Positions 15,332-60,318 of a stretch of 64,000 nt of DNA are shown piece by piece. The stretch's first letter is position 1. Each line of letters opens with the position of its first letter. This DNA comes from an uncultured bacterium (GTDB lineage Bacteria > Verrucomicrobiota > Verrucomicrobiia > CAIQCK01). The notes under the pieces were generated by a model. It searched no databases and was not told the origin of the DNA. It saw only the letters and a list, made by a program, of their open reading frames with translations. The position numbers were made by a program, and so were the translations under genes. Location of the stretch: NCBI GenBank assembly GCA_903870275.1, contig CAIQCK010000101.1, positions 13,141 through 77,140 of the forward strand. The letters run 5' to 3'.

Positions 15332-15408
15332 TGGTGGGCGCGCTCGGATTCGAACCGAGGACCCAGTGATTAAGAGTCACTTGCTCTAGCCAGCTGAGCT
15401 ACGCGCCC
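15332..15408 (-). tRNA. tRNA-Lys (anticodon CUU)
   Basis: Reverse complement GGGCGCGTAGCTCAGCTGGCTAGAGCAAGTGACTCTTAATCACTGGGTCCTCGGTTCGAATCCGAGCGCGCCCACCA gives a canonical cloverleaf with anticodon loop CTCTTAA (CTT) and encoded CCA. A T8 run follows immediately 3'. Confidence 0.9.
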
Positions 15409-15426: not shown

Positions 15427-15484
15427 CCCTACCGATGTCGCCATGGCCTGTCAATACTCTACTCGATGGTACTCTACTCGATGG
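15427..15484 (-). promoter_or_regulatory. putative sigma70-type promoter of tRNA-Lys with upstream tandem 15-bp repeats
   Basis: On the minus strand: TTGACA (15450-15455) -17 nt- TAGGGT (15427-15432), about 18 nt before the tRNA 5' end. Immediately upstream are two perfect tandem copies of tactctactcgatgg (15455-15484). Confidence 0.4.
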
Positions 15485-16081: not shown

Positions 16082-16432
16082 CTACACCCGCTTCGCGTCG
16101 CCCCACAACCGCTCCAGCGCGTAGTGATGACGCACGTCGGCGCGAAAGACGTGGACGACGACGTCGCCGTAATCCACCACGACCCAGTGGCTGGAGTAAA
16201 CGCCGTCGCGACCGCGCGGCATGCGGCCATGCTCCTTGAGCCGCATCTCGACACTGCCGGCAATGGCTTTCAGATGCGGCTCGGAGGTGCCGTTGCAGAT
16301 GAGGAAAAAGTCGCAGAAGGAGGAGATGCCGCGCATGTCGAGCAGCACGATCTCGTCGGCCTTTTTTTCCAGCGCGGCCTCGCGGCACAGGCTGGCCAGT
16401 TCGGGGGAATCCAGGGGGGTGTTGTTGTCCAT
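16082..16432 (-). CDS. rsfS: ribosomal silencing factor RsfS (Iojap family)
   Basis: 116 aa. Conserved Iojap core ..DIVLLDMRG..FCDFFLICNG.S..H. Overlaps the stop of the upstream nadD, the typical nadD-rsfS arrangement. Confidence 0.85.
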   Translation of the reverse strand: MDNNTPLDSPELASLCREAALEKKADEIVLLDMRGISSFCDFFLICNGTSEPHLKAIAGSVEMRLKEHGRMPRGRDGVYSSHWVVVDYGDVVVHVFRADVRHHYALERLWGDAKRV

Positions 16433-17007
16433 CAGCTGTAAAGTCCGGTTTTCTCAATATACCGCCGCACGGCATCCGGCACAAGGTAGCGGACCGACGC
16501 GCCGCGCGCGAGCCGGTCGCGGATGTCTGACGACGAGATGTCGGCAGGATGGCCGGGCAATCGGTGAACACGCACACCCCGGAGCCGCGTGCGGGCCGGC
16601 CGTTCGCCGGGCCGCGCGACGCAAATAAACTCGCAGAGCCGTGCCAGTTCCGAAGCCTCGCGCCACGTGTGCAGTTCGTTCAGGCTGTCGGTGCCGATGA
16701 GAAAATAAAACTTCGCGCGTGGCATGGCGTGGAGCAGTTGGCGCAACGTCTCCACCGAATACGACGGCCCGCCCCGCCGCATCTCCATGTCGGAGCAGCC
16801 GAAACGCGGATTGCCGTGAATGGCGAGTTTGACCATCCGCAGCCGGTGTCGCGCCTCGGCCAGCACAGGGGGCCGTTTGTGCGGCGGCGTGGCGGCGGGA
16901 ATGAAGATGACCCGATCCAGTTCGAGCGCTTCCGCCGCGGCGTCGGCAATGAGCAGGTGCCCCATGTGAATGGGGTTGAACGTGCCGCCGAAGATGCCGA
17001 GTTTCAT
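16432..17007 (-). CDS. nadD: nicotinate-nucleotide adenylyltransferase NadD
   Basis: GIFGGTFNPIHMGHL (HxGH nucleotidyltransferase motif) and C-terminal ISSSDIR motif. Start taken at MKLGIFGG (17007); the ORF extends to 17028. Confidence 0.85.
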   Translation of the reverse strand: MKLGIFGGTFNPIHMGHLLIADAAAEALELDRVIFIPAATPPHKRPPVLAEARHRLRMVKLAIHGNPRFGCSDMEMRRGGPSYSVETLRQLLHAMPRAKFYFLIGTDSLNELHTWREASELARLCEFICVARPGERPARTRLRGVRVHRLPGHPADISSSDIRDRLARGASVRYLVPDAVRRYIEKTGLYS

Positions 17008-17030
17008 CGTGTCGCTATCAGTCGCCACTA

Positions 17031-17119
17031 GTCAGTGTACAGTGGTTAGTGGACAGTGACCAGTGTTCAGTTTGCAGGAATCCGTTCGTTCACTGCCCAC
17101 TGTTCACTGTCCACTGATC
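17031..17119. repeat. inverted heptamer-period repeat pair: (NNCAGTG)x6 -13 nt- (CACTGNN)x4
   Basis: Left arm 17031-17083: seven 7-nt units (gtcgcca ctagtca gtgtaca gtggtta gtggaca gtgacca gtgttca) plus partial gtttg. Right arm 17096-17119: gttcact gcccact gttcact gtccact. The arms are imperfect reverse complements (gtggacagtgaccagtg / cactgttcactgtccac). Lies between the nadD start and the tRNA-Tyr 3' end. Confidence 0.7.
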
Positions 17120-17135
17120 CCTATTCACAAAAAAA

Positions 17136-17220
17136 TGGTGGAGGGAGAAGGATTTGAACCTTCGAAGGCATAGCCACCTGATTTACAGTCAGGCCCATTT
17201 GGCCGCTTTGGTATCCCTCC
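17136..17220 (-). tRNA. tRNA-Tyr (anticodon GUA)
   Basis: Reverse complement GGAGGGATACCAAAGCGGCCAAATGGGCCTGACTGTAAATCAGG...TTCGAAGGTTCAAATCCTTCTCCCTCCACCA. Anticodon loop CTGTAAA (GTA), long variable arm, encoded CCA. A T7 run follows immediately 3'. Confidence 0.9.
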
Positions 17221-26728: not shown

Positions 26729-29173
26729 ATGCGACTCATTTTCATTGCCATCATTTTCGCCGCCCTGCTCTCGCCGTTGCGCGCCGCCGATTCGGACGAG
26801 GAACAATCCATCGCCGTCCTGCAATCGGACGCCACCTTGCAGCAGAAGGACGCCGCGTGCGCGCAACTCAAGCACATCGGCACCGTCCGCTCTGTGCCCG
26901 CGCTGGCCGCGCTGCTCGCCGACGAACAACTCTCCCACTCCGCCCGTTACGCGCTCGAATCCATGCCGCTGCCCGAAGCGGGCCGCGCGTTGATCGGCGC
27001 GCTGGACAAGACCGCCGGCCTGACCCGGGTTGGCATCATCACTTCGCTCGGCTACCGCCGCGAACTCGCTGCACTGCCGGCGCTGGCGAAACTGGTTTCC
27101 GACAACGACCCGCAGATCGCCTCGGCGGCAGCGGTGGCGCTGGGAAAAATCGGCGGTGCGGAGGCGGCGAACACCCTGAAGGCCGCCCGCGCCGGAGCAC
27201 CCGCCCCCGTCCAACCCTCCATCGCGGACGGCCTGCTCCGTTGCGCCGCGCATTTCCTCAAAAAGGGCGCAATGCATTCTCCGCACGCGCTCCCCGCCGA
27301 TGAGGACACCGCGGCGGCATCGGAAATCTACCAATCGCTTCTGCACTCCAAAGAGCCTCGCCTGCGCACCGCCGCCGCTCACGGCCTGATTGTCTCCAGC
27401 GGCAAGGACGCGGCCGCAACGGCGCAGAAGATGTTGCTGGGAGACGATCCCTTCTGCCGGATGGCCGCTTTGCAGTTGATCGCCCGGATTCCCGGAGAGG
27501 TCGCAACGAAACTTTTCGCCGAGTCGCTGCCCTCGCTCCCCGCCGATATCCAAGTCGCGGTGATTGAAGCCCTGCGACAACGCGGCGACGCGGCGGCCGT
27601 TCCCGCGCTCGTCCCGGCCACGAAGGCTTCGTCGGATGCGGTGCGCATTGCCGCCCTGCGCGCGCTGGGCGCGATTGGCGACGCTTCGGTCATTGCGCCG
27701 CTAGCCGAAACAGCCGCCGGCACAAAGGGCGGCGAGCAGGAAGCCGCGCGTGACGCGCTCGATCTGCTTCGCGGCAAGGGCATCTCCAAGGCCATGCTGG
27801 CCCATCTGACCAAGGCGGCGCCGGAAGTTCAGACAGAACTGATTCTGTCGTTGGGCCGGCGCAAAGAAACCTCCGCCGTTCCGACGTTGCTGAAGCTTGC
27901 CGGGTCTTCCAGCGAATCGCAGCGCGCCGCCTCGCTTCAGTCGCTCGCGCTGACGGCGGATGAAGGCGTGGTGAACGATCTCGTCGGGCTTCTGGTGAAG
28001 GCCGGCACCGATGGCGAACGCGACGCGATTGAGAAAACCCTGCTGACCATCTGCGTCCGCAGCAAACATAGCGAGGTCTGCGCCGCGTCCGTGCTGAAGT
28101 CCGAGAAAACCGCTGCCGTTCCGGTGCGTTGCGCCTTGCTCAGAGTTCTCGGTCGCGTCGCCGGCAACGAATCGCTCCAGGAACTTCGCACCGCCACCCG
28201 CGACAGCGATCCCGCCATTCAAGACGCCGCCATCCGCTCGCTCGCCGATGCCGGACGGCTCGACGCCATGCCGGACCTGCTCGCGCTGGCGAAAGACGCG
28301 CCCACCCTGCCCCATCGCGTCCTCGCGCTCCGCGGTTACTGGCACGCCGTCTCGCTCGCCGACAAATGCGCCGCCGCCGAGCGCCTGAAAATGTGCGAGA
28401 CGGGCCTGGCGGCTTCACCGCGCCCCGACGAAAAGCGGCTCGGTCTCACGGAACTGGCGAAAATCCCGGACGTTGGTGCGTTCAAGCTGGCCGAGCCGTT
28501 TCTCGCCGACGCCGCCGTACGCGCCGAAGCCGCGTCCGCCATCGTGCAGATCGCGCTAGAAACCTCCGGCGCGCACCGCAGCGCCGCCAAAGCCGAACTG
28601 ACCCATCTTCTTGCCACCGCGCCCGACGACGCTACCCGCAAAGCTGCGGAAGCGGCGCTGGATCAACTTGAGCCGGCCGCCGGCTACATCACCGCGTGGC
28701 AGGTGGCCGGTCCCTACGCGCAAGAGGGCAAGAACTACCGCGCTCTTTTCGATATCCTCTTCCCGCCGGAAACGCCCGACGCGGCGCAGGTGAAATGGCG
28801 CACGTTGCCGGCCGGCACCAGCGCCGGCACACCGTGGCTGCTCGACCTGCTCAAGTTCCTCGGCGGCCAACAATGCGTGGCCTACGCGCGCACCAACGTC
28901 TACTCCGACAAACCACAAGCCGCGCGCCTCGACCTCGGCTCCGACGACGGCGTGAAAGTCTGGCTGAACGGCGAGGTGATCCACGCCAACAACACCGCGC
29001 GTCCCCTGAAGCCGGGATCGGACAAGGTCGCCATCAAGCTCAAGCAAGGCTGGAACGCGCTCCTGTTGAAAATCACCCAGAACAACCTGGGCTGGGAATT
29101 TTCCGCCCGCATCGTCAAACCCGACGGCACGCCGCTCTTCGGCCTCCGCGCCGACACCTCTCCGGTTCATTAA
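26729..29173 (+). CDS. HEAT/PBS-lyase repeat protein with C-terminal beta-sandwich (lectin/PA14-like) domain, secreted
   Basis: Signal peptide MRLIFIAIIFAALLSPLRA. About 600 aa of HEAT-like repeats (..ALG.IG..A...L..LL.D.D..VR..A..AL..). C-terminal about 160-aa beta-sandwich (..VKVWLNGEVIH..). Starts 11 nt after the Gfo/Idh/MocA stop, an operon arrangement common in PVC genomes. Confidence 0.7.
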   Translation: MRLIFIAIIFAALLSPLRAADSDEEQSIAVLQSDATLQQKDAACAQLKHIGTVRSVPALAALLADEQLSHSARYALESMPLPEAGRALIGALDKTAGLTRVGIITSLGYRRELAALPALAKLVSDNDPQIASAAAVALGKIGGAEAANTLKAARAGAPAPVQPSIADGLLRCAAHFLKKGAMHSPHALPADEDTAAASEIYQSLLHSKEPRLRTAAAHGLIVSSGKDAAATAQKMLLGDDPFCRMAALQLIARIPGEVATKLFAESLPSLPADIQVAVIEALRQRGDAAAVPALVPATKASSDAVRIAALRALGAIGDASVIAPLAETAAGTKGGEQEAARDALDLLRGKGISKAMLAHLTKAAPEVQTELILSLGRRKETSAVPTLLKLAGSSSESQRAASLQSLALTADEGVVNDLVGLLVKAGTDGERDAIEKTLLTICVRSKHSEVCAASVLKSEKTAAVPVRCALLRVLGRVAGNESLQELRTATRDSDPAIQDAAIRSLADAGRLDAMPDLLALAKDAPTLPHRVLALRGYWHAVSLADKCAAAERLKMCETGLAASPRPDEKRLGLTELAKIPDVGAFKLAEPFLADAAVRAEAASAIVQIALETSGAHRSAAKAELTHLLATAPDDATRKAAEAALDQLEPAAGYITAWQVAGPYAQEGKNYRALFDILFPPETPDAAQVKWRTLPAGTSAGTPWLLDLLKFLGGQQCVAYARTNVYSDKPQAARLDLGSDDGVKVWLNGEVIHANNTARPLKPGSDKVAIKLKQGWNALLLKITQNNLGWEFSARIVKPDGTPLFGLRADTSPVH

Positions 29174-29559
29174 CTCACGCCATCCGTCCTCAATGGAGCC
29201 GGAGCGGACTCTTCACCGCACCATGCCGCGCCGCACCCATGGACGCAGCCGCCGACGCTTGCCACGTGTGACGTGGTAAGGAGAACTCCGCTAGCTCGGC
29301 GTTGACGTGTCCGGGCCATAAACCCGTCGGAAGGGTCCCGGAGAGCCCCGGCCTCCAATGCTTGGACGCGCATCGCGACCATGAACTGGCATGATCCCTC
29401 GCGATTCCAAAGCGGCAGAGGACTGCCGCAGTCCAAGAGGCTTGCGCCCATGTGTGAGGGGCTGTCCGCAACGCGGCAGCGCCGTCGCACTGCGTCATTA
29501 AGGTCTTGGGCACTAGGTCCTCGGCGACACCGCTGAGAGCGAATGCGTCGAAGAGGGCG

Positions 29560-31250
29560 TGAATGATGGCGAGTTGAAGTTTCCTGGTTTTTGGTTATGC
29601 CGGTCACGCCCGCCGAACTCGCTCTCGGTTTGACCAACGTGGGTCTTTACAGTTGTTAGCCTCGTCGAACTTAGGTTCGACAAGCTCCTTCCCCCACAGC
29701 TTGCCGCCGGCACGCTGTGGATTGTTCCGAAAATGGCGATTGCGGTCCCGAAAGTAGCGGTTAATAGCCTCCTTGCACTCTTCGACTGACTGGTAATCAC
29801 TGTTGTGAAGTATCGCCTTCGCCATGCCACTGAAAACGGATTCGATCACATTCAGAAACTGTGCGCCCGCAGGAAGCGGGGCCAGTCTAACGAATGGCCC
29901 ATGCAGATCTCGGCGAAACTCGCGGCTGTTTACGAAATGAACCCTCTCAAGAAACTGATGCGAAGCGTGCCAAGACGCAGCGTCCCAAGAGAAATAGATG
30001 AACTTTGCCGCACGATACTTCCGCACAAGCAGATTCAGCAACTTGATCATCTCGGTTGTGTCCTTCTTTCGTGAGTAGAAATGCGTGGCTTGATTACGTG
30101 ATAACTCGAGTGCAGCCGTGACGATCAAACTGCCTTTATTCTTTTGGAGTTGTGGGACCACTCGCACTTGCCCTCTGGGGACGAATGACTTTCCGCCAGT
30201 CATCTTGACAGCAAATGGTCCGAACTCATCCACGGAGAAGAATCTGTCTTTTGTTCCCAAGTGTGAGAGTATGCGCGTAATCTTCCGAACTTTTTCAGAG
30301 TATTGCGGATCCGCGCTAGTCAGCACTTTCTTTGCCTTTCGCATCCGCCAACCTGCGTTCCTGATTATTCTGCTGATGCAGGCTTTCCCAACATGAAGCC
30401 CCTGTTTGCCCATGATGCACTTGATGTCCTGCAATCGCCAAGTCGTCCGGTTAACTCCAAAGGCGCGTGGCGGTGCATGGAGTATCGAGAAGACGGCCTG
30501 TTTGTATTCAGGGACATCGCACTTCGCGTATGCACGGCTAACAGGGTTTACGGCAGCTTCGCACCCTTTGGCAGCAAGTTGGGATATGTGAGCATCAACA
30601 GCGGAATGACCGAGGTGCAGGAATCTCGAAATGACCGAGACCGGAATTCCTTTCAGATGAGCAAGAATCGAAACCGCACGGTTCCTGAAACGCAAGCCCT
30701 TGTCTCTAATGCAACTCAGGATAAGACCGATCTCGCGCGGCGTCAGATGCTTCGCAAACAACAGAGCAAGTTGCTCGACAGTGAAGCTACCCTGAAGCAA
30801 GGAGAGCATCCACTCGCGACTTTTCTGCTCCCGGTCTGCGCGCGGGTTTACAGCTCTAATTGGTCGTTTACAATCTGGATAGATGCCATCTTCGTCACCC
30901 CGCCTTCGCATTCCTGACGCGCTTTCTAATGAACGTATCGACTGCTCCGCAAGCGACTGTGCATCGCTTGGGCATCGGCGTAGAGGCCGGAAACTTGCTG
31001 CTGCTTTGTCGAGCAACGCCTTCTTCCACCTGTAGAACACGTTCTGATGAATCCCGTAGCCTAAGCACAATAAGCGAACAGGAATCTTCTCCTCAAAGTG
31101 CATTCGGAGGAGCCTGACCTTTTCATCGGCGTTGAAGTGCCTTCGTTTTCTCGGCATGCGTGCTTAACATTGTTTCATTTCGCAGGCTGCGCCAGTGAAT
31201 TGTCAGTGGCGAGCCGGGACTCGAAACCTTCTCCCGCTAACCGCATCCAC
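29560..31250 (-). mobile_element. IS630-family insertion sequence (boundaries approximate)
   Basis: Single 517-aa transposase ORF with noticeably lower GC than its flanks. Terminal inverted repeats could not be resolved by eye, so the ends are estimated from the ORF ends plus typical 50-100 bp flanks. Confidence 0.55.
29604..31157 (-). CDS. IS630/Tc1-mariner family transposase (HTH + DDE_3)
   Basis: N-terminal HTH region (RRHFNADEKVRLLRMH...). DDE_3-like core (..FSVDEFG.., ..FSWDAASWH.., ..LPAGAQFLNVIESVF.. corresponding to the LPPYSPDLNPIE motif). Confidence 0.75.
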   Translation of the reverse strand: MPRKRRHFNADEKVRLLRMHFEEKIPVRLLCLGYGIHQNVFYRWKKALLDKAAASFRPLRRCPSDAQSLAEQSIRSLESASGMRRRGDEDGIYPDCKRPIRAVNPRADREQKSREWMLSLLQGSFTVEQLALLFAKHLTPREIGLILSCIRDKGLRFRNRAVSILAHLKGIPVSVISRFLHLGHSAVDAHISQLAAKGCEAAVNPVSRAYAKCDVPEYKQAVFSILHAPPRAFGVNRTTWRLQDIKCIMGKQGLHVGKACISRIIRNAGWRMRKAKKVLTSADPQYSEKVRKITRILSHLGTKDRFFSVDEFGPFAVKMTGGKSFVPRGQVRVVPQLQKNKGSLIVTAALELSRNQATHFYSRKKDTTEMIKLLNLLVRKYRAAKFIYFSWDAASWHASHQFLERVHFVNSREFRRDLHGPFVRLAPLPAGAQFLNVIESVFSGMAKAILHNSDYQSVEECKEAINRYFRDRNRHFRNNPQRAGGKLWGKELVEPKFDEANNCKDPRWSNRERVRRA

Positions 31251-31276
31251 ACGAACGCGATTCTTGTCCATTTACC
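31250..31276 (+). promoter_or_regulatory. shared upstream motif GAACGCGATTCTTGTYYATTTAC (copy 1, imperfect palindrome ACGAAC-N5-TTCTTG)
   Basis: About 40 nt upstream of the GH gene ATG at 31307. 21 of 23 positions identical to the copy at 35385-35410. Confidence 0.45.
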
Positions 31277-31306
31277 GCGAGACGTGACACGAGCATACTG
31301 GCAGAC

Positions 31307-33415
31307 ATGAAGGCACTTGCAATTATCCGACTCGGTTGCGCGTGTTTGGTTGGCGGTGCGATTGGAGCAGCGGCGGACGAGATTGTGTTGTTCGATGCCG
31401 CTACGACGCCGATGGCCGCGGTCGCGTCGCAGTCGGGCGGGAAGATCGAGTTGCGAGACGGGCTGCTGGAAGTCGAGACGAAGGGCGGGACGGGCTATCC
31501 GGGGATTCGTGTCAAGGGCGTGTGGGATTTGTCGAAGTGCAACCGGCTGACGCTGGAGCTGGCCCTTCGCGATCGCAAGGGCGAACTGCCGCTCACGATC
31601 CGGCTCGACAATCCGGATGCGAATCCCGGCAAATCAGAAGGCGTGTTTGTGGATCGCGTGAAGATCCGTGGCAAGAAGCCGGCGAGCTACGAAGTAGCGC
31701 TCCCGCCGCCGCTGCCCTACGGGCGCGAAATCAACAGCAAACTCACCGGCATGAAGCGCGGGCCGTTGGCGACGACGGGTGTGGCGGCCGATCTGGATGC
31801 GTCGAAGGTGGTCGGCGTGGCGGTCTATATCAACGAGCCGAAGCTGGACTGGCTCTGGAGTGTGAAGCGCATCGTCGCGCACACCGGGCCGTCGCCAGAC
31901 GTGGCGGCATGGATGCGGCTGCCGCCGGAAACGTTTTTCCCGTTCATTGACGTGTATGGCCAGTTCAAACACAAGGAGTGGCCCGGCAAGACGCACTCGG
32001 ACAACGACCTGAAAAAGGCACTGGAGACCGAGCGCGCCGACCTCGCCGCGCATTCCGGCCCCGACGGGTGGAACCCATACGGCGGTTGGGCCAAGGGGCC
32101 GCGGCAAAAAGCGACCGGCCGGTTCCGCGTCGAGAAGATCAACGGCAGGTGGTGGATGGTGGATCCCGAAGGCTGCCTCTGGTGGTCGCACGGGCCGGTG
32201 CGCGTCACCTCCTCGTCGGCGGTGACGCCGCTGGACGGGCGCGAGCTTTACTTCACCGATCTGCCCAAGCCGGACTCGCCGTTCGCGCTCTTCTATACGA
32301 CGCGCGACGCGCTGCTCTGGCCGTATTACGAGGCGCGCGGCATCCAGCGGACGTATGATTTTTCCTCGGCCAACGCCTACCGCAAGTATGGCGCGGACTG
32401 GCGCGCGCGCTACGCCGACATGGCGCACCAACGGCTGCGGAGCTGGGGCATGAACACCATCGCGAACAGTTCCGACAAGGGCATCTGCCTGCAGCGGCGC
32501 ACGCCCTACTGTGACCGCTTCGAGTTGAAATCGCCGGACATCGAGGGCGCGCATCTCGGCTGGTGGAAGTTCAAAGACCCGTTCCACCCCGAATTCCGCG
32601 CCAACTTCCGGCGGCAGCTCGCGCAGCGAAAAGAGGAACTCGATGACCCGTGGTGTTTCGGGTTTTTCGTGGACAATGAGATCAGTTGGGGCGGCGAGAC
32701 CGCGCTGGCGGACTGGACATTGCAATCGCCCGCCACCCAGCCGGCGAAGATCGAGATGATTCGCCGGCTCAAGGAGAAATACGCCGCCATCGCCCAACTC
32801 AACGCGGCATGGAAAACCAACTACACCGACTGGGACGCGTTGCTCCAATCGCAGCAGAAGCCACCGCCCGATGCGAAAGACGACTGCGCTGCATTCACCG
32901 CGGTCGTGACCGAGGCATACTTCAAGAACATCCGCGACGAATTCAAGGCTGTCGCTCCCAACACGCTCTATCTCGGTTGTCGCTTCGCCGGCTCGACCAA
33001 GGCCGCCGTCCAGATCGCGGCCAAATACTGCGACGTCATCAGCTACAACCTCTACCGGCACACGCTGGATGATTTCAAACTGCCGGAGGGCGTGGACAAG
33101 CCGGTTATGATTGGCGAGTTCCATTTCGGCGCGCTCGACCGCGGCATGTTTCATCCGAGCCTGATCGAGGTCGCCGACCAGGCCGCGCGCGGCAAAGCTT
33201 ACGCGACCTACATCGCTTCCGCGCTGCGCCACCCGAACATCGTCGGCGCGCACTGGCATCAATTCGGCGAGCAGCCGACCACCGGCCGCTTCGACGGTGA
33301 GAATCTTCAGAACGGCCTGCTCGATGTGTGCGACACGCCCTACCCCGAAACCATCGCCGGCATCCGCGACGTCGGCTATCGCCTTTACGAAATCCGCAAC
33401 GAAGGAGTGAGATAA
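31307..33415 (+). CDS. secreted glycoside hydrolase (N-terminal CBM-like beta-sandwich + TIM-barrel; GH42/GH50-like)
   Basis: Signal peptide. About 200-aa N-terminal beta-sandwich. TIM-barrel region with ..GMNTIANS.., ..GFFVDNEISW.., ..MIGEFHFG.. and ..HWHQFGEQPTTGR.. typical of clan GH-A hydrolases. Exact family unresolved. Confidence 0.6.
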   Translation: MKALAIIRLGCACLVGGAIGAAADEIVLFDAATTPMAAVASQSGGKIELRDGLLEVETKGGTGYPGIRVKGVWDLSKCNRLTLELALRDRKGELPLTIRLDNPDANPGKSEGVFVDRVKIRGKKPASYEVALPPPLPYGREINSKLTGMKRGPLATTGVAADLDASKVVGVAVYINEPKLDWLWSVKRIVAHTGPSPDVAAWMRLPPETFFPFIDVYGQFKHKEWPGKTHSDNDLKKALETERADLAAHSGPDGWNPYGGWAKGPRQKATGRFRVEKINGRWWMVDPEGCLWWSHGPVRVTSSSAVTPLDGRELYFTDLPKPDSPFALFYTTRDALLWPYYEARGIQRTYDFSSANAYRKYGADWRARYADMAHQRLRSWGMNTIANSSDKGICLQRRTPYCDRFELKSPDIEGAHLGWWKFKDPFHPEFRANFRRQLAQRKEELDDPWCFGFFVDNEISWGGETALADWTLQSPATQPAKIEMIRRLKEKYAAIAQLNAAWKTNYTDWDALLQSQQKPPPDAKDDCAAFTAVVTEAYFKNIRDEFKAVAPNTLYLGCRFAGSTKAAVQIAAKYCDVISYNLYRHTLDDFKLPEGVDKPVMIGEFHFGALDRGMFHPSLIEVADQAARGKAYATYIASALRHPNIVGAHWHQFGEQPTTGRFDGENLQNGLLDVCDTPYPETIAGIRDVGYRLYEIRNEGVR

Positions 33416-33417
33416 AC

Positions 33418-35331
33418 ATGAACCGCCGCGCAATCTCCACCCTGACGGCGGCGCTGCTGCTGGCCATTGGAGCTTTGGCACAGGAACCCAAACCGCCGGT
33501 CTTCGCCTATCGCTCGTTCTGGCCGGAGTTCGAGGCGATGAAGCAGTTCAAGGACGCGGGCGTGAACACCGTCTGCATCTTCGCCGCCAACACCTACAAC
33601 TCGCTCGGCCAGCCTTACTGCAAATACCCGCCCGTGTGGCGCTGGTTTCGAAAGTATGACTTCGCGTCGCTGGACAAACAATATGACGATGTCCTCGCGA
33701 TCAATCCGAAGGCGGATTTTCTCTGCATGATAGACCTGAACACGCCGATCTGGCTCAAGCACCAGATGGCGTTGCGCGGACAGCCGGATTGCGACAGCTT
33801 CACCATGCTGAGCTGTGCTTGCGCCAGCCGCGAATGGCGCAAAACAACCGGCGAGTATCTGGAGGCGGTGGTCAAGCACATGGAGGCGCGTTATGGCGAC
33901 CGCGTGAAAGCCTACGTGCTCGCCTGCGGCCAGACCGACGAGTGGATGGATTACAGCCGTGGCATGGCCGGCCGGGCAAAAACCCAGGCGTGGAAAACAT
34001 GGCTCAAAGACCACGGCAGGGCCGACGTGGCCGTGCCCACGCTGGAGCGACTGGATCACGCGTCATTCGAGGACTTGATTCGCGATCCGGCCACCGAGCG
34101 GGACGTGGTGGATTACGCGCAGTTCACCGGCGACATCGTTGCGGACACCGTGCTGGAGTTTGCGAAGAAGACCCGTTCGCTGATTCCAAGGCAACGACAG
34201 ATCGGAATGTTTTTCGGCTACATCCTGGAGTTGACCCGCACGCGTCTGGTTTGGGCAGGCCATCTGGAATACGAACGGCTTTACAGCTCGCCGGACATTG
34301 ATTTCTTCATCAGCCCGGGAACCTACAGCGATCGGCCGATGGGCGGCGGCAGCGGCTTCATGGTGCCGAACGCAACGCGGCTGCTGAATCATAAAGGCTT
34401 CCTCCACGAGATGGATCACCGCACGCCGACGTATAATGTCCACCTCGACGAGTTCGTCTCCATTGCGTGGATGGTGCCGTGGAAAAATCAGGCGGAAACC
34501 GACGCCGGCCTGAAGCGGGAGTTTGCCCTCGCGATCACCGCACAGAGTTCGCTGTGGTGTTTCGACATGTGGGGCGGGGTTTTTAAGACGCCGGAAACGA
34601 TGCAATGCGTCAAGCAAGCCAAGACGCTGTGGGATCGTTTCACCGCGCAGCCGCTCAAGACCCGCGCCGAGGTCGCGCTGGTGGTGGACCCGCAAAGCGC
34701 GCGCTACGTCAACGACCAGAACGCCACGGTGGCGCAGATCTACCAGAACACGCGCAACACGCTCAATCGCTTGGGCGCGCCGTTCGAGGTTTTCTCCTTC
34801 AACGACCTGTCGCGCGCCGACCTGTCTCAATACCGGCTGTTTATTTTTCCCGGACTCTTCGAGCTGACGCCCGAGAAAATGGAGGTGCTCAAAAATCACG
34901 TTCTCAAAAACAATCGCACGGTGATGTTCCTCTACGCGCCCGGCATCTGCGACGGCAAGACCCTCGATCCGGCGCGGGTGAAAGCGCTGACCGGCACCGC
35001 GTTCAAGACGCCGGGCCTCAGCACGGTGCCGCGCGATGGTTGGAAGGCCGTTTATGCCGCCGGCTACGCGGACTTGACGGCGGAGACCTTGAGAAAAGCG
35101 GCTGTCGAAGCGGGCGTCACGATCTACTGTCAGGACGCCGTTCCGGTTTACGCCAACGAACGCCTCGTGGCGATTCACACGGCGCAAGGAGGTGAGAAGA
35201 CCATCACGCTGCCGGTTGACTGCCGGCAGGTTCGCGAGCTTTACACCGGCCGTCTTGTGCCCGTGACAGCACGCCAGTTCCGTTACTCATTTGAGACGCC
35301 GGACACGGCACTGTTCGAACTGATTTGGTAA
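33418..35331 (+). CDS. secreted glycoside-hydrolase-like protein (TIM-barrel + beta-galactosidase-trimerisation-like domain)
   Basis: Starts 3 nt after the previous stop with a GGAG RBS. Signal peptide MNRRAISTLTAALLLAIGALA. Resembles the GH42-like/DUF4832-type two-domain architecture. The ORF extends back to 33328. Confidence 0.5.
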   Translation: MNRRAISTLTAALLLAIGALAQEPKPPVFAYRSFWPEFEAMKQFKDAGVNTVCIFAANTYNSLGQPYCKYPPVWRWFRKYDFASLDKQYDDVLAINPKADFLCMIDLNTPIWLKHQMALRGQPDCDSFTMLSCACASREWRKTTGEYLEAVVKHMEARYGDRVKAYVLACGQTDEWMDYSRGMAGRAKTQAWKTWLKDHGRADVAVPTLERLDHASFEDLIRDPATERDVVDYAQFTGDIVADTVLEFAKKTRSLIPRQRQIGMFFGYILELTRTRLVWAGHLEYERLYSSPDIDFFISPGTYSDRPMGGGSGFMVPNATRLLNHKGFLHEMDHRTPTYNVHLDEFVSIAWMVPWKNQAETDAGLKREFALAITAQSSLWCFDMWGGVFKTPETMQCVKQAKTLWDRFTAQPLKTRAEVALVVDPQSARYVNDQNATVAQIYQNTRNTLNRLGAPFEVFSFNDLSRADLSQYRLFIFPGLFELTPEKMEVLKNHVLKNNRTVMFLYAPGICDGKTLDPARVKALTGTAFKTPGLSTVPRDGWKAVYAAGYADLTAETLRKAAVEAGVTIYCQDAVPVYANERLVAIHTAQGGEKTITLPVDCRQVRELYTGRLVPVTARQFRYSFETPDTALFELIW

Positions 35332-35384
35332 AGTGGGGCGGGCATTTCAACCAGATCGTGCCCTCAAGACCGATACCGCACTCG

Positions 35385-35442
35385 CAAGAACGCGATTCTT
35401 GTTTATTTACGACGGCCTTCGGGCGGCGCATAATGCCGCCCG
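35385..35442 (+). promoter_or_regulatory. shared upstream motif copy 2 (perfect palindrome CAAGAA-cgcga-TTCTTG) plus 5'-UTR hairpin
   Basis: caagaacgcgattcttg (35385-35401), tttatttac, then GGGCGGC-gcataat-GCCGCCC hairpin (35420-35442). ATG of the ceramidase-like gene is at 35467. Confidence 0.45.
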
Positions 35443-35466
35443 TGCAGTCTGAAGAACATTGAAGCC

Positions 35467-36876
35467 ATGTCACGGAGCACGATCATGCCCACACTCGCCA
35501 CTCGCCGAAGTTTTCTTTGCCACCTCGTCATCGTCGCATCGAGCTTGTCGCTCGCCCACGGCGCAGCCGCCGGCGACGGCGGACTGAAGCTCGCCACGTT
35601 CGACGTGGACGCCACGCCGCCGGTTGGCTCGATGCTAGCTTACGATCCCGTCATCCGCGTGGACGAACTGACGCTGCGATGCCGTGGTGTCGTCTTGATC
35701 GGCGCGGGCGAGCCGATTGTGTTGTGCGCGGTGGATTGGATCGGCATCGCCAACGAAGCCCACGACGCTTTCTGCGAGGCGCTGGCCAGGGCCGCGCACA
35801 CGACGCCGCAGCGCGTCGCCGTCCACGTGGTGCACCAGCACGACGCGCCGGGATGCGATTTCACCGCGGAAGCTCTGTTGAAAAAAGCGGGTGTAAGCGA
35901 CCTCGGCCGCTACGAAAGCGCCTTTGCGCGCAAAGTGATCAGCCGCGCCGCGGAAGCGGTGCGGGTTTCCCTCACGAAGGCGCAGCCCGTCACCTACTGC
36001 GGCTGGGGCGAAGCCAACGTGAAGGAAGTGGCGTCGAACCGCCGCATCCCCGGCCCGGACGGCCGCATCCGCGCCACGCGCTGGACCACTTGCAAGGACC
36101 CGAAATTGCGCGCGGAGCCGGAAGGCGTGATTGACCCGCGTGTGTCGCTGCTGAGTTTTTGGAACGACGACGAACCGGTCGCCGTCCTGAGCTACTACGC
36201 CTGTCATCCGCAAAGCTACTACCGCATGGGCATTCCCAGCCCGGATTTTCCCGGCATCGCGCGTTTCTTCCGCCAACAAGACGTGCCGGAGGCGTTGCAC
36301 GTACATTTCAACGGCGCCGGGGGAAATATCACCGCGGGCAAATACAACGACGGCGCGCGGGAGAACCGCGTGGCGCTCGCGCTGCGGCTGGCCAACGGCA
36401 TGAGGCGCGCGTGGGAAGCGACGCGGGTCTTTCCCATCAACGCAACGAACATCCAGTGGCGCGTGGAGCCTGCGGCCCTGCCGCCTGCGGCTCATCTCGA
36501 CGAGGCAAAGCTGCGTGCCGACCTGACTCAGCAAAAGAATCCCAAGCTCGCCTTGGACGCCGCCGACCAGCTCGCGTGGCTGTTGCGTTGCCAGAGCGGG
36601 CACAAGATAGACATCGCGATGCTGGGCGTCGGCGACGTGCGAGTACTGCACATGCCAGGCGAGCTGTTCGTCGAATATCAACTTGCCGCCAAGCAGATGC
36701 GTCCCGATCTTCACGTCGCAATGGCCGCCTATGGCGAATACGGCCCCGGCTACATCGGCACGGCACGCGCCTACCCCGAAGGCGGCTACGAAACCAGCAA
36801 GCTGGCGTCCGGTGTCACGCCAGAGGTGGAGTCGGTATTGATGACCTCCATGCGGAAGCTGCTGGAGCCGCGATGA
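35467..36876 (+). CDS. neutral/alkaline ceramidase-like hydrolase (paralog 1), Tat/Sec-exported
   Basis: [24 protein letters not shown] leader. Ceramidase N-terminal-domain signature VHQHDAPG (GxHxHSGP-like) and overall similarity to 57589..59049. Confidence 0.55.
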
Positions 36877-36982
36877 TGCTTTGAATCGCGTGAGAAACTT
36901 TCCCTTGGAATCGCTTGTTTCAAAACAACGGGCCGGTAGAATCCCGCCGTTCACGTCTCTTCATCTACGAGCTTGAGAAACC

Positions 36983-38164
36983 ATGCTCTGCCAGCAAACG
37001 ACTGCACATGCCGAGCCTGCCGTCGCCGCGAAAAGCGGCCGGCTGGCGTCGCTCGATGCGTTGCGCGGGCTGGACATGTTCTGGATCATCGGCGGCGGCC
37101 AGGCGGCGGTGGCAGCGGCCAAAGCCAGCGGCCAATCATGGCTCAACTGGGTTCCCGTCCAGATGAGCCACGTGGCATGGGACGGGTTCCGCTTCTATGA
37201 CCTGATCTTTCCGCTGTTCCTGTTCATGATCGGCGTCGCGATTCCCTACGCACTAGGCAAGCGTCTCAGCCGCGGCGACAGCCGCCCAAGCATCTACGGT
37301 CATCTCATCTTGCGCGTCGCCGTCATGATCGTGCTGGGAATGATGGTCAACGGTAGCTTGCTGACGCTCGACCCAAAGAAGTTCGAACTGACCTACAGCG
37401 TGCTCCAGATGCTGGCGCTGGGCTATTTCGTCGCGGCGGTTCTGTTCCTGAACCTGGGTCTGCGCGGCCAGATCATCGCCACGGTCGCGATGCTCGTGGG
37501 CTACTGGGCTTTGCTGGCGTTCGTGCCCGGTCCCGGCCATGAAATCGGACGGTTCCGCGAAGGCTGCAACGCGGGCGATTGGGTGACCGAATATCTTTTC
37601 GGCAAATGGCGCGGCCAGCAGATCGGCTGGGTCGTCGGCATTCTCGGCCATGCTTCGACCGCGATGCTCGGCGTGTTTGCCGGACACCTGCTTCGCTCCG
37701 GTCTGGACGCGTGGCAAAAACTGCGATGGCTCGCCGTGCTCGGCGTGGCCTGTCTCGCCGCAGGTTTTCTCTGGAGTGGCTGGCTTGCCGAATGGTTTCC
37801 GGGCGCGTGGAACCAGTGGCCCATCTGGTTCCCAATCATCAAGGTCCGATGGACGAGTTCGTACGCGCTCTACGCGGGCGGCATCAGTTTCCTGTTGCTG
37901 GCGCTCTGCTACCTGATCATTGACGTGCGGGGATGGCGCCGCTGGGCGGAGCCGTTCATGGCCATCGGCGCCAATTCGATCTTCGCCTACATGGCGTGGC
38001 AACTCTGCAGTTCCGCCTTCCGGCGCGTCGCGGAGGTATTTCTGGGCGGACTGAAGGCTTACGTCGGTCCATGGCACGAAACGATCCTCGCGGCCGGAAC
38101 ATTCGCTGTCTTGTGGATTCTGCTCGGCTACCTGTATCGCAAAGGAACTTTCATTCGCATCTGA
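36983..38164 (+). CDS. DUF5009/HGSNAT-like (heparan-alpha-glucosaminide N-acetyltransferase-like) integral membrane protein
   Basis: Motif R.ASLDALRGLDMFWII at the N-terminus followed by about 10 TM helices, typical of the DUF1624/DUF5009 acyltransferase-3-like family. Confidence 0.6.
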   Translation: MLCQQTTAHAEPAVAAKSGRLASLDALRGLDMFWIIGGGQAAVAAAKASGQSWLNWVPVQMSHVAWDGFRFYDLIFPLFLFMIGVAIPYALGKRLSRGDSRPSIYGHLILRVAVMIVLGMMVNGSLLTLDPKKFELTYSVLQMLALGYFVAAVLFLNLGLRGQIIATVAMLVGYWALLAFVPGPGHEIGRFREGCNAGDWVTEYLFGKWRGQQIGWVVGILGHASTAMLGVFAGHLLRSGLDAWQKLRWLAVLGVACLAAGFLWSGWLAEWFPGAWNQWPIWFPIIKVRWTSSYALYAGGISFLLLALCYLIIDVRGWRRWAEPFMAIGANSIFAYMAWQLCSSAFRRVAEVFLGGLKAYVGPWHETILAAGTFAVLWILLGYLYRKGTFIRI

Positions 38165-51877: not shown

Positions 51878-52966
51878 ATGACAGACCTCTCCCGCCGCAC
51901 CGTGTTGAAGTTGGGAACCGCCGGATTGGCTGGCTCGGCATTGCCCGCACTCACGTCAGGAAGCGAGAAGGCGGGCAAGACGAGCGACGGTTTGTGCAAC
52001 GCGGCCATCAACATCCGCGCCCATCAACTGCTGAGTCTTGTCTGCGTCCTCGGCGGCGCGAAATGCCCGTTGATGGAAGCAGCCAAGGCGCGCGCGGTGT
52101 TGCAGCGGCTCGGCAGCGATCCCACGACCGCGATCCGTCTGATATCGAACGCGGACGAGATTCCGCATTATACCAAGCTGGCGCAGACAGGGAAAGCCGC
52201 GCCGGACGCGCAGGAGGTGCTGAATCGAAAACGCGACCTCGACGTGCTCCAGCGGCTGGGCCTCGCGCCGGGCGACACGCGCCGCGCCCGTTACCTTTAC
52301 GACCTGCTGTTCAAGCGCATCGAGACCCCGAAAGGCATTTGCGCCCATGACACGCCGGGATGGGAAGGCTGTCCGCTCGCAAAAGACGGCGCGTATGAAC
52401 GCGTGCGCGCGCAGGGGTGGAAGACGGTCGTTTATTTGCGAACGGATCAGGAGCGCGAGCAATACCGCCGCCGCAATGTGCAGCGCATCGAGACGGGCGA
52501 CCGCCTCTTCGTCCGTCCGCACCATTTGATGTGCCTGGCGTGCTGGTATGCCGGCGGCAAGAACCAGTCGCCCCGGCCCAACGACACGTTATTCGAAATC
52601 TGGCAGCGCATCCGCCGCGAGCCGGACGCGCCCATTACGCTGGTCGAAGGAACGTGCATGGCCTGCGATTGCTGCGACGGCTTCCATCCGCCCAACGGCC
52701 GCTGCGTCCACTCGTGCGGGCTGATCCGCGATTACAAAAAAGACCTCGACGTTCTCCAGAAGCTTGGGCTGATGCCCGGCGCGACAATGAAGGCGCGCGA
52801 ACTGTTCGCCCTCTTGTTCCAGCGCATCCCGTCCACGCGCGACGTCTGCGCCTACGGCGACGGCATCGAGCGCTCCGAGGAATGGAAAATTTGCAGCGGC
52901 CCCGACGGCAATCCGGGCTACGTCGCGACACGACGAACAGGCGTCTTCAACGAAGACCGCTCATGA
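51878..52966 (+). CDS. Tat-exported cysteine-rich hypothetical protein with internal duplication
   Basis: Tat motif SRRTVLKLGTAGLAGSA. Two homologous about 40-aa segments (KRDLDVLQRLGLAPGDTRRARYLYDLLFKRIETPKGICAH / KKDLDVLQKLGLMPGATMKARELFALLFQRIPSTRDVCAY). Cys clusters CNAAINIRAHQLLSLVCVLGGAKC and CLACW...CMACDCCDGFHPPNGRCVHSC. Confidence 0.55.
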   Translation: MTDLSRRTVLKLGTAGLAGSALPALTSGSEKAGKTSDGLCNAAINIRAHQLLSLVCVLGGAKCPLMEAAKARAVLQRLGSDPTTAIRLISNADEIPHYTKLAQTGKAAPDAQEVLNRKRDLDVLQRLGLAPGDTRRARYLYDLLFKRIETPKGICAHDTPGWEGCPLAKDGAYERVRAQGWKTVVYLRTDQEREQYRRRNVQRIETGDRLFVRPHHLMCLACWYAGGKNQSPRPNDTLFEIWQRIRREPDAPITLVEGTCMACDCCDGFHPPNGRCVHSCGLIRDYKKDLDVLQKLGLMPGATMKARELFALLFQRIPSTRDVCAYGDGIERSEEWKICSGPDGNPGYVATRRTGVFNEDRS

Positions 52967-53009
52967 CGCACATCAGAAACCCGCACTAACAGACGATTTC
53001 GGAAAACAC

Positions 53010-55409
53010 ATGAAACACAATCCAATGAACAAAACCCTGGTCCATCTCTTTTTCGCAACCGCCTTGCTCGTCAGCGATGTCGTGGCTGACGATTCCGGCA
53101 AGGCGCGTGGATGGCCAGACACCGCCCCGTTGACGAAACGAAGCGTGATCGTGACTTTCGACGGCGGCGCCTCCGTGCGCGTGGACGTGCTGGGCCAAAA
53201 GCTGTTTCGCATCCGCCACAGCAAGACGGGCCAGTGGACGGAATCGGGACTGAACCGTTACGGCATATTCACCACGTCCTTTCCCGATGTCGCCTTTGAG
53301 CGGACGGAGGGCAAAGGCGAAATGGTGGTCGCCACCCAACAGGCCAGGCTCACCATCAACCGCAAAGACGGTGCCATCGCTCTGGCGACTGCCGACGGAA
53401 TCGCGCTGACGCAGCAGGCCGCTCCCGTCTATGAAACCAACGGCGGCTATGATGTCCGTTTCACACTGGCCAAGGACGAGCGTCTCTACGGGTTGGGCGA
53501 CGTCAGCCGCGAGAACATCATGCGCCGGCCCGGTGTCTATGAGTTTTGGGTGCTCAATGTGAAAGCGTATATCCCGATTCCAGTGATGTTGAGCAGCCGG
53601 GGCTGGGGCATGCTAATGAACACCACCTGGCGCAACACCATGGACATCGGCAAGAGCGACCCGGACCGGATCGTCTGCACCGCGCCCCGGAGCGATCTCG
53701 ACTACTATCTGTTTTGCGGGCCGGATTATCGGAGTCTGCTCGACACCTACACGTCGTTCAGCGGGCGCCCTGCCCTGTTGCCGATCTGGGGATATGCGTT
53801 CACCTACGTCTGCAACGAAAACATTGACGCCTTTAACATGATAAACGAGGCGCTCACATTCCGGCGCGAGGGCATGCCGTGCGACGTCATCGGACTCGAA
53901 CCCGGCTGGATGTCCAAGAACTACGACGGCACCACCGCGAAGGCCTGGCATCCCCAGCGTTTTCCAATCCCCTACTGGGCGCCGAAGGGGCCGCATACCT
54001 TTCTCGGCGCGCTCAAGCGCAAAGGGTTCAAGCTCAGCCTCTGGCTCTGTTGCGATTACGATTTGGGCGTTTACGAGGAAGAACTGCTCGCCGGGCGTAA
54101 AACGGCGCCGGCATCGGACGCCAAATCGGCCACGGCGCGTGGCTCCGTCAACATCCAGGAAGGATTCGAAGACGAGCGGCTGACCAAACCCACAGGCGCC
54201 AAAACAAAGAACGCGGCCAAACACGAAGCGCCGTCGGTCCTGGAACCCTGGTTCGATCATCTCAGCAAGTTCGTGGATCAGGGTGTCTCGGCGTTCAAAC
54301 TCGACGGCTCCAGCCAGGTCATCGAACATCCCACCCGCAAATGGGGCAACGGCATGACGGACGAAGAGATGCACAACCTCTATCCCGTGATCTATGCCAA
54401 ACAGATGTCGCGGGGATTTGAGGACCACGCCAAACGCCGTTCCATGATTTACTCCGCCGGCGGGTACTCGGGCGTCCAGCAGTTCGTCGCCACCTGGGCC
54501 GGCGACACCGGAGGCGGAGCCAAGCCGCTGGCCTCCATGTTGAATCTCGCGTTCTCGGGTCATTCCAACCACTCGTGCGACATGAATGTCTCCGATGTGG
54601 AAGGCATTCACTTTGGGTTTCTACAAACTTGGGCACAGCAAAATAACTGGGCTTATTGGTATCAGCCCTGGCTCCTGGAGGACGCGCAGACCGCCGCGTT
54701 CCGCGCGTATGGGCAGCTTCGCTACAAGCTGCTCCCCTATCTTTACTCGACGGCCGCCGAGGCCGCGCTGACCGGTTATCCGGTCATGCGCGCGATGTCC
54801 ATGGCTTATCCCGACGATCCGGCGTGGGACGCCAGCCGGGCGCAATACATGTTGGGCGATTTTCTGTTGGTCTCGGCCTTCTCCAAAGAAGTCCGTCTGC
54901 CGAAAGGAGCGTGGATTGATTTCTGGAGCGGTAAACGTCTCGACGGGCCGGCGACGGTTCCCGTGCAAATCACGCCCACGCAGGGTGGCGCGCTGCTGGT
55001 GAAAAGTGGCGCCATCATTCCCACATGGCCGCCTTGCGATCATGTCGGAAAAGGCTGGTCGCCTGAAGTCGGATTGCTCGTTTACCCGGCGGCCAGCAGC
55101 GCCTTCACGTTGTATGAAGATGACGGCGCAAGCCTCGCCTACCGTAAAGGCAAGTTCGCCCGGACGCGCCTGACTTGCGAGACGACCGGGAAGACAACCA
55201 AACTGACCATCGGCGGGCGGGAAGGAAGCTACGCCGGCATGCCCGCGACGCGCGACTTCACCGCCACCATTCATTTGCCCGCCCGTCCCAAAACAGTCAC
55301 GCTCGACGCCGTGGCTGTGACCGACTGGCAGTGGAGCGACGAAACTTCGGTCGCAACGATCAAAATTCCCGCGTGCGGCAATGGGCCACGGGTGTTGGTC
55401 TGCGACTAA
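53010..55409 (+). CDS. glycoside hydrolase family 31 (alpha-glucosidase/alpha-xylosidase-like), secreted
   Basis: Signal peptide. GH31-type regions ..DVIGLEPGWM.., ..SAFKLDGS.. and ..IYSAGGYSGVQQFVATWAGDTGG.. (equivalent to the GH31 ..RS.F.G.QRY...W.GDN.. block). Confidence 0.7.
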   Translation: MKHNPMNKTLVHLFFATALLVSDVVADDSGKARGWPDTAPLTKRSVIVTFDGGASVRVDVLGQKLFRIRHSKTGQWTESGLNRYGIFTTSFPDVAFERTEGKGEMVVATQQARLTINRKDGAIALATADGIALTQQAAPVYETNGGYDVRFTLAKDERLYGLGDVSRENIMRRPGVYEFWVLNVKAYIPIPVMLSSRGWGMLMNTTWRNTMDIGKSDPDRIVCTAPRSDLDYYLFCGPDYRSLLDTYTSFSGRPALLPIWGYAFTYVCNENIDAFNMINEALTFRREGMPCDVIGLEPGWMSKNYDGTTAKAWHPQRFPIPYWAPKGPHTFLGALKRKGFKLSLWLCCDYDLGVYEEELLAGRKTAPASDAKSATARGSVNIQEGFEDERLTKPTGAKTKNAAKHEAPSVLEPWFDHLSKFVDQGVSAFKLDGSSQVIEHPTRKWGNGMTDEEMHNLYPVIYAKQMSRGFEDHAKRRSMIYSAGGYSGVQQFVATWAGDTGGGAKPLASMLNLAFSGHSNHSCDMNVSDVEGIHFGFLQTWAQQNNWAYWYQPWLLEDAQTAAFRAYGQLRYKLLPYLYSTAAEAALTGYPVMRAMSMAYPDDPAWDASRAQYMLGDFLLVSAFSKEVRLPKGAWIDFWSGKRLDGPATVPVQITPTQGGALLVKSGAIIPTWPPCDHVGKGWSPEVGLLVYPAASSAFTLYEDDGASLAYRKGKFARTRLTCETTGKTTKLTIGGREGSYAGMPATRDFTATIHLPARPKTVTLDAVAVTDWQWSDETSVATIKIPACGNGPRVLVCD

Positions 55410-55437
55410 CCCGTAACCGCGCCGGTATGCGAGGCGA

Positions 55438-57567: not shown

Positions 57568-57588
57568 ACATACACGAGAGACAACTCT

Positions 57589-59049: not shown

Positions 59050-59117
59050 ACCTGCGGCAGGATGTGACGACGATTCGCTTGCGGTTGTCCTTCTATCCGC
59101 GTCCCGAATAACGACGG

Positions 59118-60155: not shown

Positions 60156-60318
60156 GGCGTGTAGTCCTAACGCAATTGGGAATTCCCGTAAACAACTGTT
60201 TCTGGGGTCGCGGTGTCTGGCTCGTTGGTCGGGGTTCCGGTGTCATCGTTGGCCAAGCCGCGGGCAAGCATTTTCTGGTGGCGCGCGGACGGCGGGCGGT
60301 GGCACGCTGCGGCTTGCC

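Follow-up and report, generated by a model that had tools for sequence, protein, structure and literature searches.

We describe a conserved, promoter-like element that stands ahead of two operons in a 64,000-nt stretch of DNA from an uncultured bacterium of the Verrucomicrobiia (contig CAIQCK010000101.1). This whole stretch, referred to here as the window, is a long glycan-degradation island with a GC content of ~61%. A 23-nt motif within the element, GAACGCGATTCTTGTYYATTTAC, had been noticed earlier as a candidate operator or promoter element. We consider it reasonably likely that the motif forms the 5′ portion of a lineage-specific promoter cassette of the σ70 family, which precedes several glycan-degradation operons in uncultured Verrucomicrobiia of one small clade. 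The box that overlaps the −35 hexamer of this cassette is probably contacted by a putative activator, by analogy with the layout of AraC/XylR-type sites. Of the two functions originally proposed, the promoter element is supported by −35 and −10 hexamers and by retention of the unit in relatives; the dimeric operator is not, given that its left arm is variable.

Conservation of the element across related loci

The motif GAACGCGATTCTTGTYYATTTAC matches exactly twice within the window, both times on the plus strand (31253 to 31275 and 35388 to 35410), and the two copies are identical at 21 of 23 positions. None of 100 dinucleotide-preserving shuffles contained a match with up to 3 mismatches tolerated (chance expectation, 0), which bears out the original prediction of a shared motif. 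The distances of 40 and 66 nt to the downstream genes given there hold only approximately: the start codons (ATG 31307 and ATG 35467) lie 31 and 56 nt from the end of the motif and 54 and 79 nt from its start. The similarity between the copies outruns the 23 nt. An ungapped comparison anchored at the motif revealed ACCGCA..C.CA on the 5′ side and GCATAMTG exactly 18 nt 3′ of ATTTAC in both copies.

Eleven unique copies of the element were found in at least 6 related Verrucomicrobiia assemblies. How the element is conserved, spaced, and oriented, and which genes adjoin it, is read directly from these copies. All 11 are intergenic and aimed at the downstream gene, with 31 to 56 nt between the end of the box and the start codon. 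The genes behind them belong to five unrelated families, all catabolic: a glycoside hydrolase family 50 (GH50)-like hydrolase, a ceramidase-like protein, a GH42-like protein, an amidohydrolase-M20 fusion (adjoining NagB-like and deacetylase genes), and a pair of genes for an SDR protein and an enolase-superfamily dehydratase (adjoining GH129 and GH36 genes). The unit begins with an 18-nt distal box, CCGCTAACCNCATCCACA, which is present in 9 of the 11 copies with a single variable position. A linker (element positions 19 to 23) follows and holds the sole variable columns among the full copies. The 19-nt proximal box, GCGATTCTTGTYYATTTAC, ends in a −35-like TTTAC(C/G), and all 17 of its specified positions are invariant in every copy. 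Beyond this box lie 18 to 19 unconserved nucleotides, the hexamer CATAMT, and, 7 to 32 nt further on, the start codon. The parts of both window copies and the genes around them are as follows.

31234 to 31251, plus strand: copy 1 distal box CCGCTAACCGCATCCACA, at ~−73 to −56 for an assumed transcription start at the A of ATG 31307
31252 to 31256, plus strand: copy 1 variable linker CGAAC (element positions 19 to 23), which supplies most bases of the dyad's left arm
31257 to 31275, plus strand: copy 1 proximal box GCGATTCTTGTCCATTTAC, overlapping the −35-like TTTACC (31271 to 31276)
31294 to 31299, plus strand: copy 1 −10-like CATACT, 17 nt past TTTACC and 7 nt before ATG 31307
31307 to 35331, plus strand: copy 1 operon, comprising the GH50-like hydrolase (31307 to 33415) and a 637-aa protein (33418 to 35331)
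35369 to 35391, plus strand: copy 2 degenerate distal box and linker ACCGATACCGCACTCGCAAGAAC, a partial distal-box match whose L032 counterpart is unrelated
35392 to 35410, plus strand: copy 2 proximal box GCGATTCTTGTTTATTTAC, overlapping the −35-like TTTACG (35406 to 35411)
35420 to 35442, plus strand: hairpin CGGGCGGCG-CATAA-TGCCGCCCG around the −10 hexamer, which folds in the window and not in L032
35429 to 35434, plus strand: copy 2 −10-like CATAAT, a hexamer kept in L032
35467 to 44880, plus strand: copy 2 operon, comprising ceramidase-like, DUF5009, creatininase-like, GH141-like, and GH141-like/esterase fusion genes (Pfam)
29604 to 31157, minus strand: DDE_3 (IS630-type) transposase gene, 517 aa (Pfam DDE_3 and HTH_Tnp_1), outside the element

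The best Protein Data Bank matches of the GH50-like hydrolase are the beta-agarases 5z6p and 4bq2 (E ~1e-79). For the 637-aa protein, the Pfam scan returned no domain.

Conservation of the unit was followed most closely in orthologues of the GH50-like gene. Among its many orthologues, those at 86 to 89% protein identity (loci L023, L024/L025, L026/L027, and L032) keep the element, the −10 hexamer, and the ATG. Those in L028 (82%) and L030 (79%) have no element and lie within operons, behind Shine-Dalgarno sequences. Across five GH orthologues, invariant columns made up 19/19 of the proximal box, 6/6 of the −10 hexamer, 20/23 of the distal box and linker, 7/18 of the spacer, and 2/40 of the 40 nt upstream. 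A second copy in L023 stands before a GH42-like gene. In two Verrucomicrobiia metagenome-assembled genomes (MAGs; L010 and L013), the 42-nt element CCGCTAACCNCATCCACACRAACGCGATTCTTGTYCATTTAC is followed 18 to 19 nt on by CATAMT and, ~10 nt further, by the ATG. An orthologue of the L013 SDR gene, recovered in a metagenome scan (L019), carries the same element; between these two orthologues both boxes and the hexamer (CATAGT/CATAAT) are kept and the spacer has diverged. At the orthologue of copy 2, L032 has an identical proximal box (5496 to 5514) and keeps only GCGATTCTTGTTCATTTAC, the 18-nt spacer, and CATAAT, the distal half being unrelated. This orthologue thus defines the minimal unit.

Copies of intermediate similarity were not found. 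A scan of 217 kb for near-copies yielded none with 1 to 2 mismatches and one chance match with 3 mismatches (L032, minus strand). Degenerate extra copies were also sought with a position weight matrix of the 42 nt and with a search tolerating as many as 5 mismatches across 217 to 259 kb, and were rejected, as only chance-level matches were returned. Larger collections were scanned with exact patterns, the first two of which demanded AACGCG and thereby missed the GGACGCG and CGACGCG variants. A collection with one genome for each species gave 15 matches, about the number expected by chance, of which the two in Verrucomicrobiia were real; a metagenome collection gave 4, one of them new and real; and a viral collection gave 2, both chance matches.

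Promoter geometry and the putative activator

In all 11 copies, TTTAC(C/G) and CATA(A/C/G)T are separated by 17 to 18 nt, a geometry that agrees with that of σ70 promoters (a gap of 17 ± 1 bp and the bases A−11 and T−7). The hexamers are kept while the spacer drifts in the five GH orthologues, which is the footprint expected of a σ70-type promoter. A consensus scan called copy 2 as TTTACG-17-CATAAT (35406 to 35434; 9 of 12 consensus matches); copy 1, with 8 of 12, fell under the cutoff of the scan. Both hexamers are weak, with 4 to 5 of 6 consensus bases each and C for T at −12. The tRNA genes of the window have TTGACA-17-TAnnnT promoters, and because these are ordinary, the organism uses standard σ70 geometry.

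The distance from the −10 hexamer to the start codon is 7 nt for the GH genes, 9 nt for the SDR genes, and 10 nt for L010, all without a Shine-Dalgarno sequence. It is 24 nt, with GGAG, for the second L023 copy and 32 nt for the ceramidase-like genes. Other genes of the window have AGGAG-like sequences that the motif-bearing GH genes, including that at ATG 31307, lack. An ATG 7 to 10 nt past the −10 hexamer without a Shine-Dalgarno sequence suggests leaderless transcription, and we conclude that the transcripts of these three gene families are probably leaderless or nearly so. Transcription starts, which in σ70-type promoters lie 6 to 8 nt past the −10 hexamer, are predicted at ~31306 to 31307 and ~35441. 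At copy 2, ATG 35467 and the ensuing M-x-R-S-T-x-M are kept in L032; in the window, the called gene start is 35485. A GTG 7 nt past the copy 2 −10 hexamer opens a 6-codon open reading frame (ORF; 35442 to 35462) that ends 6 nt before ATG 35467. This leaderless mini-ORF was considered and set aside: it is absent as a conserved feature in L032 and is therefore probably due to chance.

With every base upstream of the −35 hexamer under selection, some protein probably reads this stretch. In the reading we favor, RNA polymerase holoenzyme would use the weak −35 and −10 hexamers and would depend on a protein contacting the asymmetric 19-nt box, which overlaps the −35 hexamer and would be centered at ~−41. 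The distal box, near −65 and approximately two helical turns upstream of the proximal box, would be touched by a second protein or subunit in most copies. The conserved stretch would run from ~−73 to −32. We infer that the binding protein would be of the AraC/XylR type and would activate rather than repress the candidate promoter. A single trans-acting factor would then activate the GH50-like, ceramidase-like/GH141, and other operons jointly.

Activators of the class II and tandem-site types (AraC, XylS, and XylR) have this layout, and the closest known systems are promoters of the AraC/XylS family. Escherichia coli XylR binds ~37-bp two-repeat sites that adjoin the −35 hexamer (PMC3561964). 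The element resembles these sites (XylR at IA/IF [PMC3561964], AraC at I1-I2, and XylS at Pm) in being a long, asymmetric, two-part site of ~37 to 42 bp that abuts or overlaps a weak −35 hexamer ahead of sugar-catabolic operons. Its 42 nt end inside the −35 hexamer, and sites of AraC, XylS, and XylR have ~35 to 45 bp and adjoin or overlap that hexamer. A further likeness is a XylR-like gene beside the motif-bearing GH gene in two species. The element differs in that its boxes are not detectable repeats, its sequence is invariant where theirs is degenerate, some copies consist of the proximal box alone, and the cognate regulator is putative. Class II marboxes of MarA, SoxS, and Rob are single asymmetric sites of ~20 bp that overlap the −35 hexamer and are read by a monomeric protein with two helix-turn-helix motifs. 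In geometry, the one property compared, they resemble the proximal-box-only copies before the ceramidase-like genes. However, the element bears no resemblance to the degenerate marbox consensus, and marboxes serve a stress regulon rather than glycan catabolism.

The XylR-like gene (PBP1_XylR, Peripla_BP_3, and HTH_AraC domains) lies on the minus strand in L024 (12114 to 13277) and L026 (12144 to 13310). Only in L024, L025, L026, and L027 (two species) does it directly follow the motif-bearing GH gene, and none is present in the window. It is convergent with the GH gene and divergent from a GFO/MFS/PfkB/KduI/FGGY operon, the promoter of which has no box.

Several observations weigh against a promoter cassette with its own activator. 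No cognate factor for the element was found: consistent with the original statement that no regulator gene is visible in the window, a Pfam search of ~45 of its ORFs returned no DNA-binding regulator domain. A pair of 21-nt direct repeats inside the 42-nt element gained no significant support: at an offset of 21, the boxes match at 9 of 21 positions (CGC.A..C...TCCA; P = 0.065), and over all offsets P = 0.38. The tandem repeats that mark AraC/XylS sites are thus not evident here. Transcription factor sites are normally degenerate, so 17 positions that never vary between loci and species are unusual for such a site; this invariance suits a σ-specific element or recent copying about equally well. 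The ceramidase-like orthologue in L035, a locus of the L023 genome, lacks the box; this orthologue and that in L036 have a different promoter. Exact-pattern scans of the large collections returned few copies, which indicates that the regulon or the lineage is small, and the ~250 kb of sampled sequence is biased, being mostly glycan loci. Lastly, some Verrucomicrobia rarely use Shine-Dalgarno sequences (PMC10783764), so that their absence is weak evidence for leaderless mRNA.

The invariant C at −12 suggests a different reader, namely, a dedicated alternative σ factor of the σ70 family that would recognize the 19-nt box and CATAMT directly, with no separate activator. All 11 copies have C as the first base of the −10-like hexamer, where the three tRNA promoters of the window have T; every position of the box is invariant; and the spacing from box to hexamer is fixed at 18 to 19 nt. 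However, a σ factor contacts ~6 to 7 bp at −35, not a 19-nt box plus an 18-nt box reaching to ~−73, and no σ gene was seen in the window or beside any copy. An AAC of the kind read by extracytoplasmic function (ECF) σ factors falls within the variable linker, where it differs between copies (GAAC, AAAC, GGAC, CGAC, GGAT). We regard a dedicated σ factor as quite unlikely. An ECF promoter recognized through GAAC was a separate candidate and was rejected: the linker reads GAAC, AAAC, GGAC, CGAC, GGAT, or CGTT, and no CGT is conserved after it at the right spacing (~16 to 17 nt). Speculatively, and with only a modest chance of being right, the 19-nt box and the fixed C at −12 would mark a dedicated system (a lineage-restricted σ factor or an activator with a long readout) governing a mostly leaderless glycan regulon, as a portable cassette repeatedly recruited before new operons.

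Read as an activator-dependent promoter cassette, the element would add a new, lineage-specific case to a known kind of promoter element. Free-living uncultured Verrucomicrobia are major degraders of polysaccharides about whose promoters and regulons almost nothing is known, and the element supplies a concrete candidate architecture of boxes, −35 and −10 hexamers, and predicted starts. The pattern GCGATTCTTGTNNATTTAC-N18/19-CATANT may serve as a sequence tag for coregulated glycan-degradation operons in MAGs. Through such a tag, genes without a known function, among them those for the 637-aa protein, the ceramidase-like protein, DUF5009, and the GH141-like proteins, could be assigned to a single substrate response.

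The palindrome and the copy 2 hairpin

The inverted repeat CAAGAA-N5-TTCTTG is present as originally described, perfect in copy 2 (35385 to 35401) and with one mismatch (CACGAA) in copy 1 (31250 to 31266). It had been taken as typical of the operator of a dimeric transcription factor; in such a model the factor would probably be a repressor. Perfect or near-perfect arms in both copies favor this, and copy 2 shares with LacI-, GntR-, and TetR-type operators a perfect 6-N5-6 dyad near a sugar utilization operon; unlike in those operators, however, the dyad here is not conserved. No part of the element is less conserved than the left arm, which matches CAAGAA at 6, 5, 5, 4, 4, 4, 4, 4, 4, 3, and 1 positions in the 11 copies. 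The arm is absent from the copy 2 orthologue in L032 (1/6), where the neighboring bases are invariant. A symmetric operator for a dimer is unsupported, as the left arm falls on the variable linker. In 251 kb the dyad is perfect at one site only, and allowing other central bases added no further sites; the site would lie at ~−56 to −40, 5′ of the core promoter. Comparison of the copies thus largely refutes the dimeric-operator model, which we hold to be very improbable, and on the same comparative grounds the palindrome within the motif is best described as incidental. The reading of the palindrome as an operator is corrected accordingly.

The hairpin noted after copy 2 does fold (9-bp stem, 35420 to 35428 with 35434 to 35442; −23.7 kcal/mol over 60 nt, z = −2.2), as had been claimed, but its proposed role in the 5′ untranslated region (UTR) is not supported. 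Its loop is the −10 hexamer, which would place most of the hairpin 5′ of the first transcribed base, and the L032 sequence does not form it (z = +0.86). The hairpin is probably not functional.

Could the element instead act as transcribed RNA, that is, as a cis-regulatory leader with a binding site for a protein or small RNA or with a structured 5′ UTR? The good folding of the copy 2 hairpin within the window would suit such a role, as would the placement of the element, always on the sense strand and upstream of a gene. Nevertheless, an Rfam search over 29000 to 37000 gave no match at E ≤ 1, the fold of the element does not differ significantly from that of shuffled sequence (z = +0.33), the hairpin is not conserved in L032, and there are no compensatory changes. 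A conserved hexamer with A at −11 and T at −7, at promoter spacing and with an ATG 7 to 10 nt behind it, better suits a promoter. An RNA leader appears highly improbable.

Mobility, the neighboring transposase, and other features of the window

Near-identical sequence ahead of nonhomologous genes could also arise if one constitutive promoter had been copied before several operons and kept as a good promoter, with no dedicated regulator. Putative mobile promoters, an operational class rather than a mechanism, are homologous promoters before nonhomologous genes within or between genomes (Matus-Garcia et al. 2012, PMC3488235), defined within one genome as at least 50 nt at ≥80% identity upstream of nonhomologous coding sequences (PMC3488235). 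By the best 50-nt window, the two L023 copies (94% identity) and the L010 and L024 copies, which share a genome (80%), reach this threshold, and no degenerate intermediate copies exist; the pair in the window (66%) falls below it. Other features speak against simple copying. The hexamers are weak (TTTACS and CATAMT), unlike those of the tRNA promoters, and apart from the transposase at copy 1, no terminal inverted repeats, target duplications, or transposase accompany the copies. At least 37 positions upstream of the −35 hexamer are held invariant between species while the spacer drifts, which indicates that something reads those bases. In contrast to putative mobile promoters, only ~42 + 6 nt are kept here and the spacer has diverged, favoring long-term selection over recent copying. 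On this evidence, we view a mobile constitutive promoter as unlikely.

The transposase gene next to copy 1 (listed above) was correctly noted at the outset. It is present in all contigs of the source species and absent from a strain with a 95% identical GH protein, in which 85 nt separate the end of a HEAT-repeat gene from the GH gene. The insertion sequence (IS) is thus a recent insertion upstream of the element. Where disruption of the upstream context of copy 1 had been suggested, the element itself was not damaged: the IS sits upstream of its conserved 5′ edge, and the element is intact despite the insertion. The boundaries of the IS gave no terminal inverted repeats in the transposase flanks (29174 to 31233), and no second copy of that DNA was found in any locus. 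An origin of the element as the terminus of an IS or of a miniature inverted-repeat transposable element was accordingly rejected: no terminal inverted repeat lies between the flanks, and the transposase stands beside copy 1 only and is missing in the 95%-identical strain. A tRNA-like fragment upstream of copy 1 was another candidate; ARAGORN found none. Positions 29536 to 29592 resemble the end of the DUF998 gene region in L023, so that part of 29174 to 29600 may be a remnant of older genes rather than IS DNA.

Directly 5′ of the element, three species have a pair of small genes (90 to 100 aa, with a weak PhdYeFM antitoxin match, and 93 aa; L023, 9351 to 9901; L026, 9353 to 9903; L032, 2689 to 3269), in place of which the window has the transposase.

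Elsewhere in the window, a perfect tandem duplication (2 × 15 nt, TACTCTACTCGATGG; 15455 to 15484) lies on the minus strand directly 5′ of the TTGACA −35 hexamer of a tRNA-Lys gene (15332 to 15408) and could be an upstream promoter element or a factor-binding element. An imperfect inverted repeat of CAGTG/CACTG-like units (17026 to 17128; 37-nt arms, 78% complementary) is located between tRNA-Tyr (17136 to 17220, minus strand) and a cytidylyltransferase-like gene (16432 to 17028). The region from 51878 to 61884 holds a second ceramidase_alk-like paralogue (57589 to 59049), a DUF1284 gene, and a BNR/sialidase-like gene. In L035, the ceramidase-like orthologue is followed by the same set of genes, indicating that ceramidase-like genes recur in a conserved glycan-degradation module.

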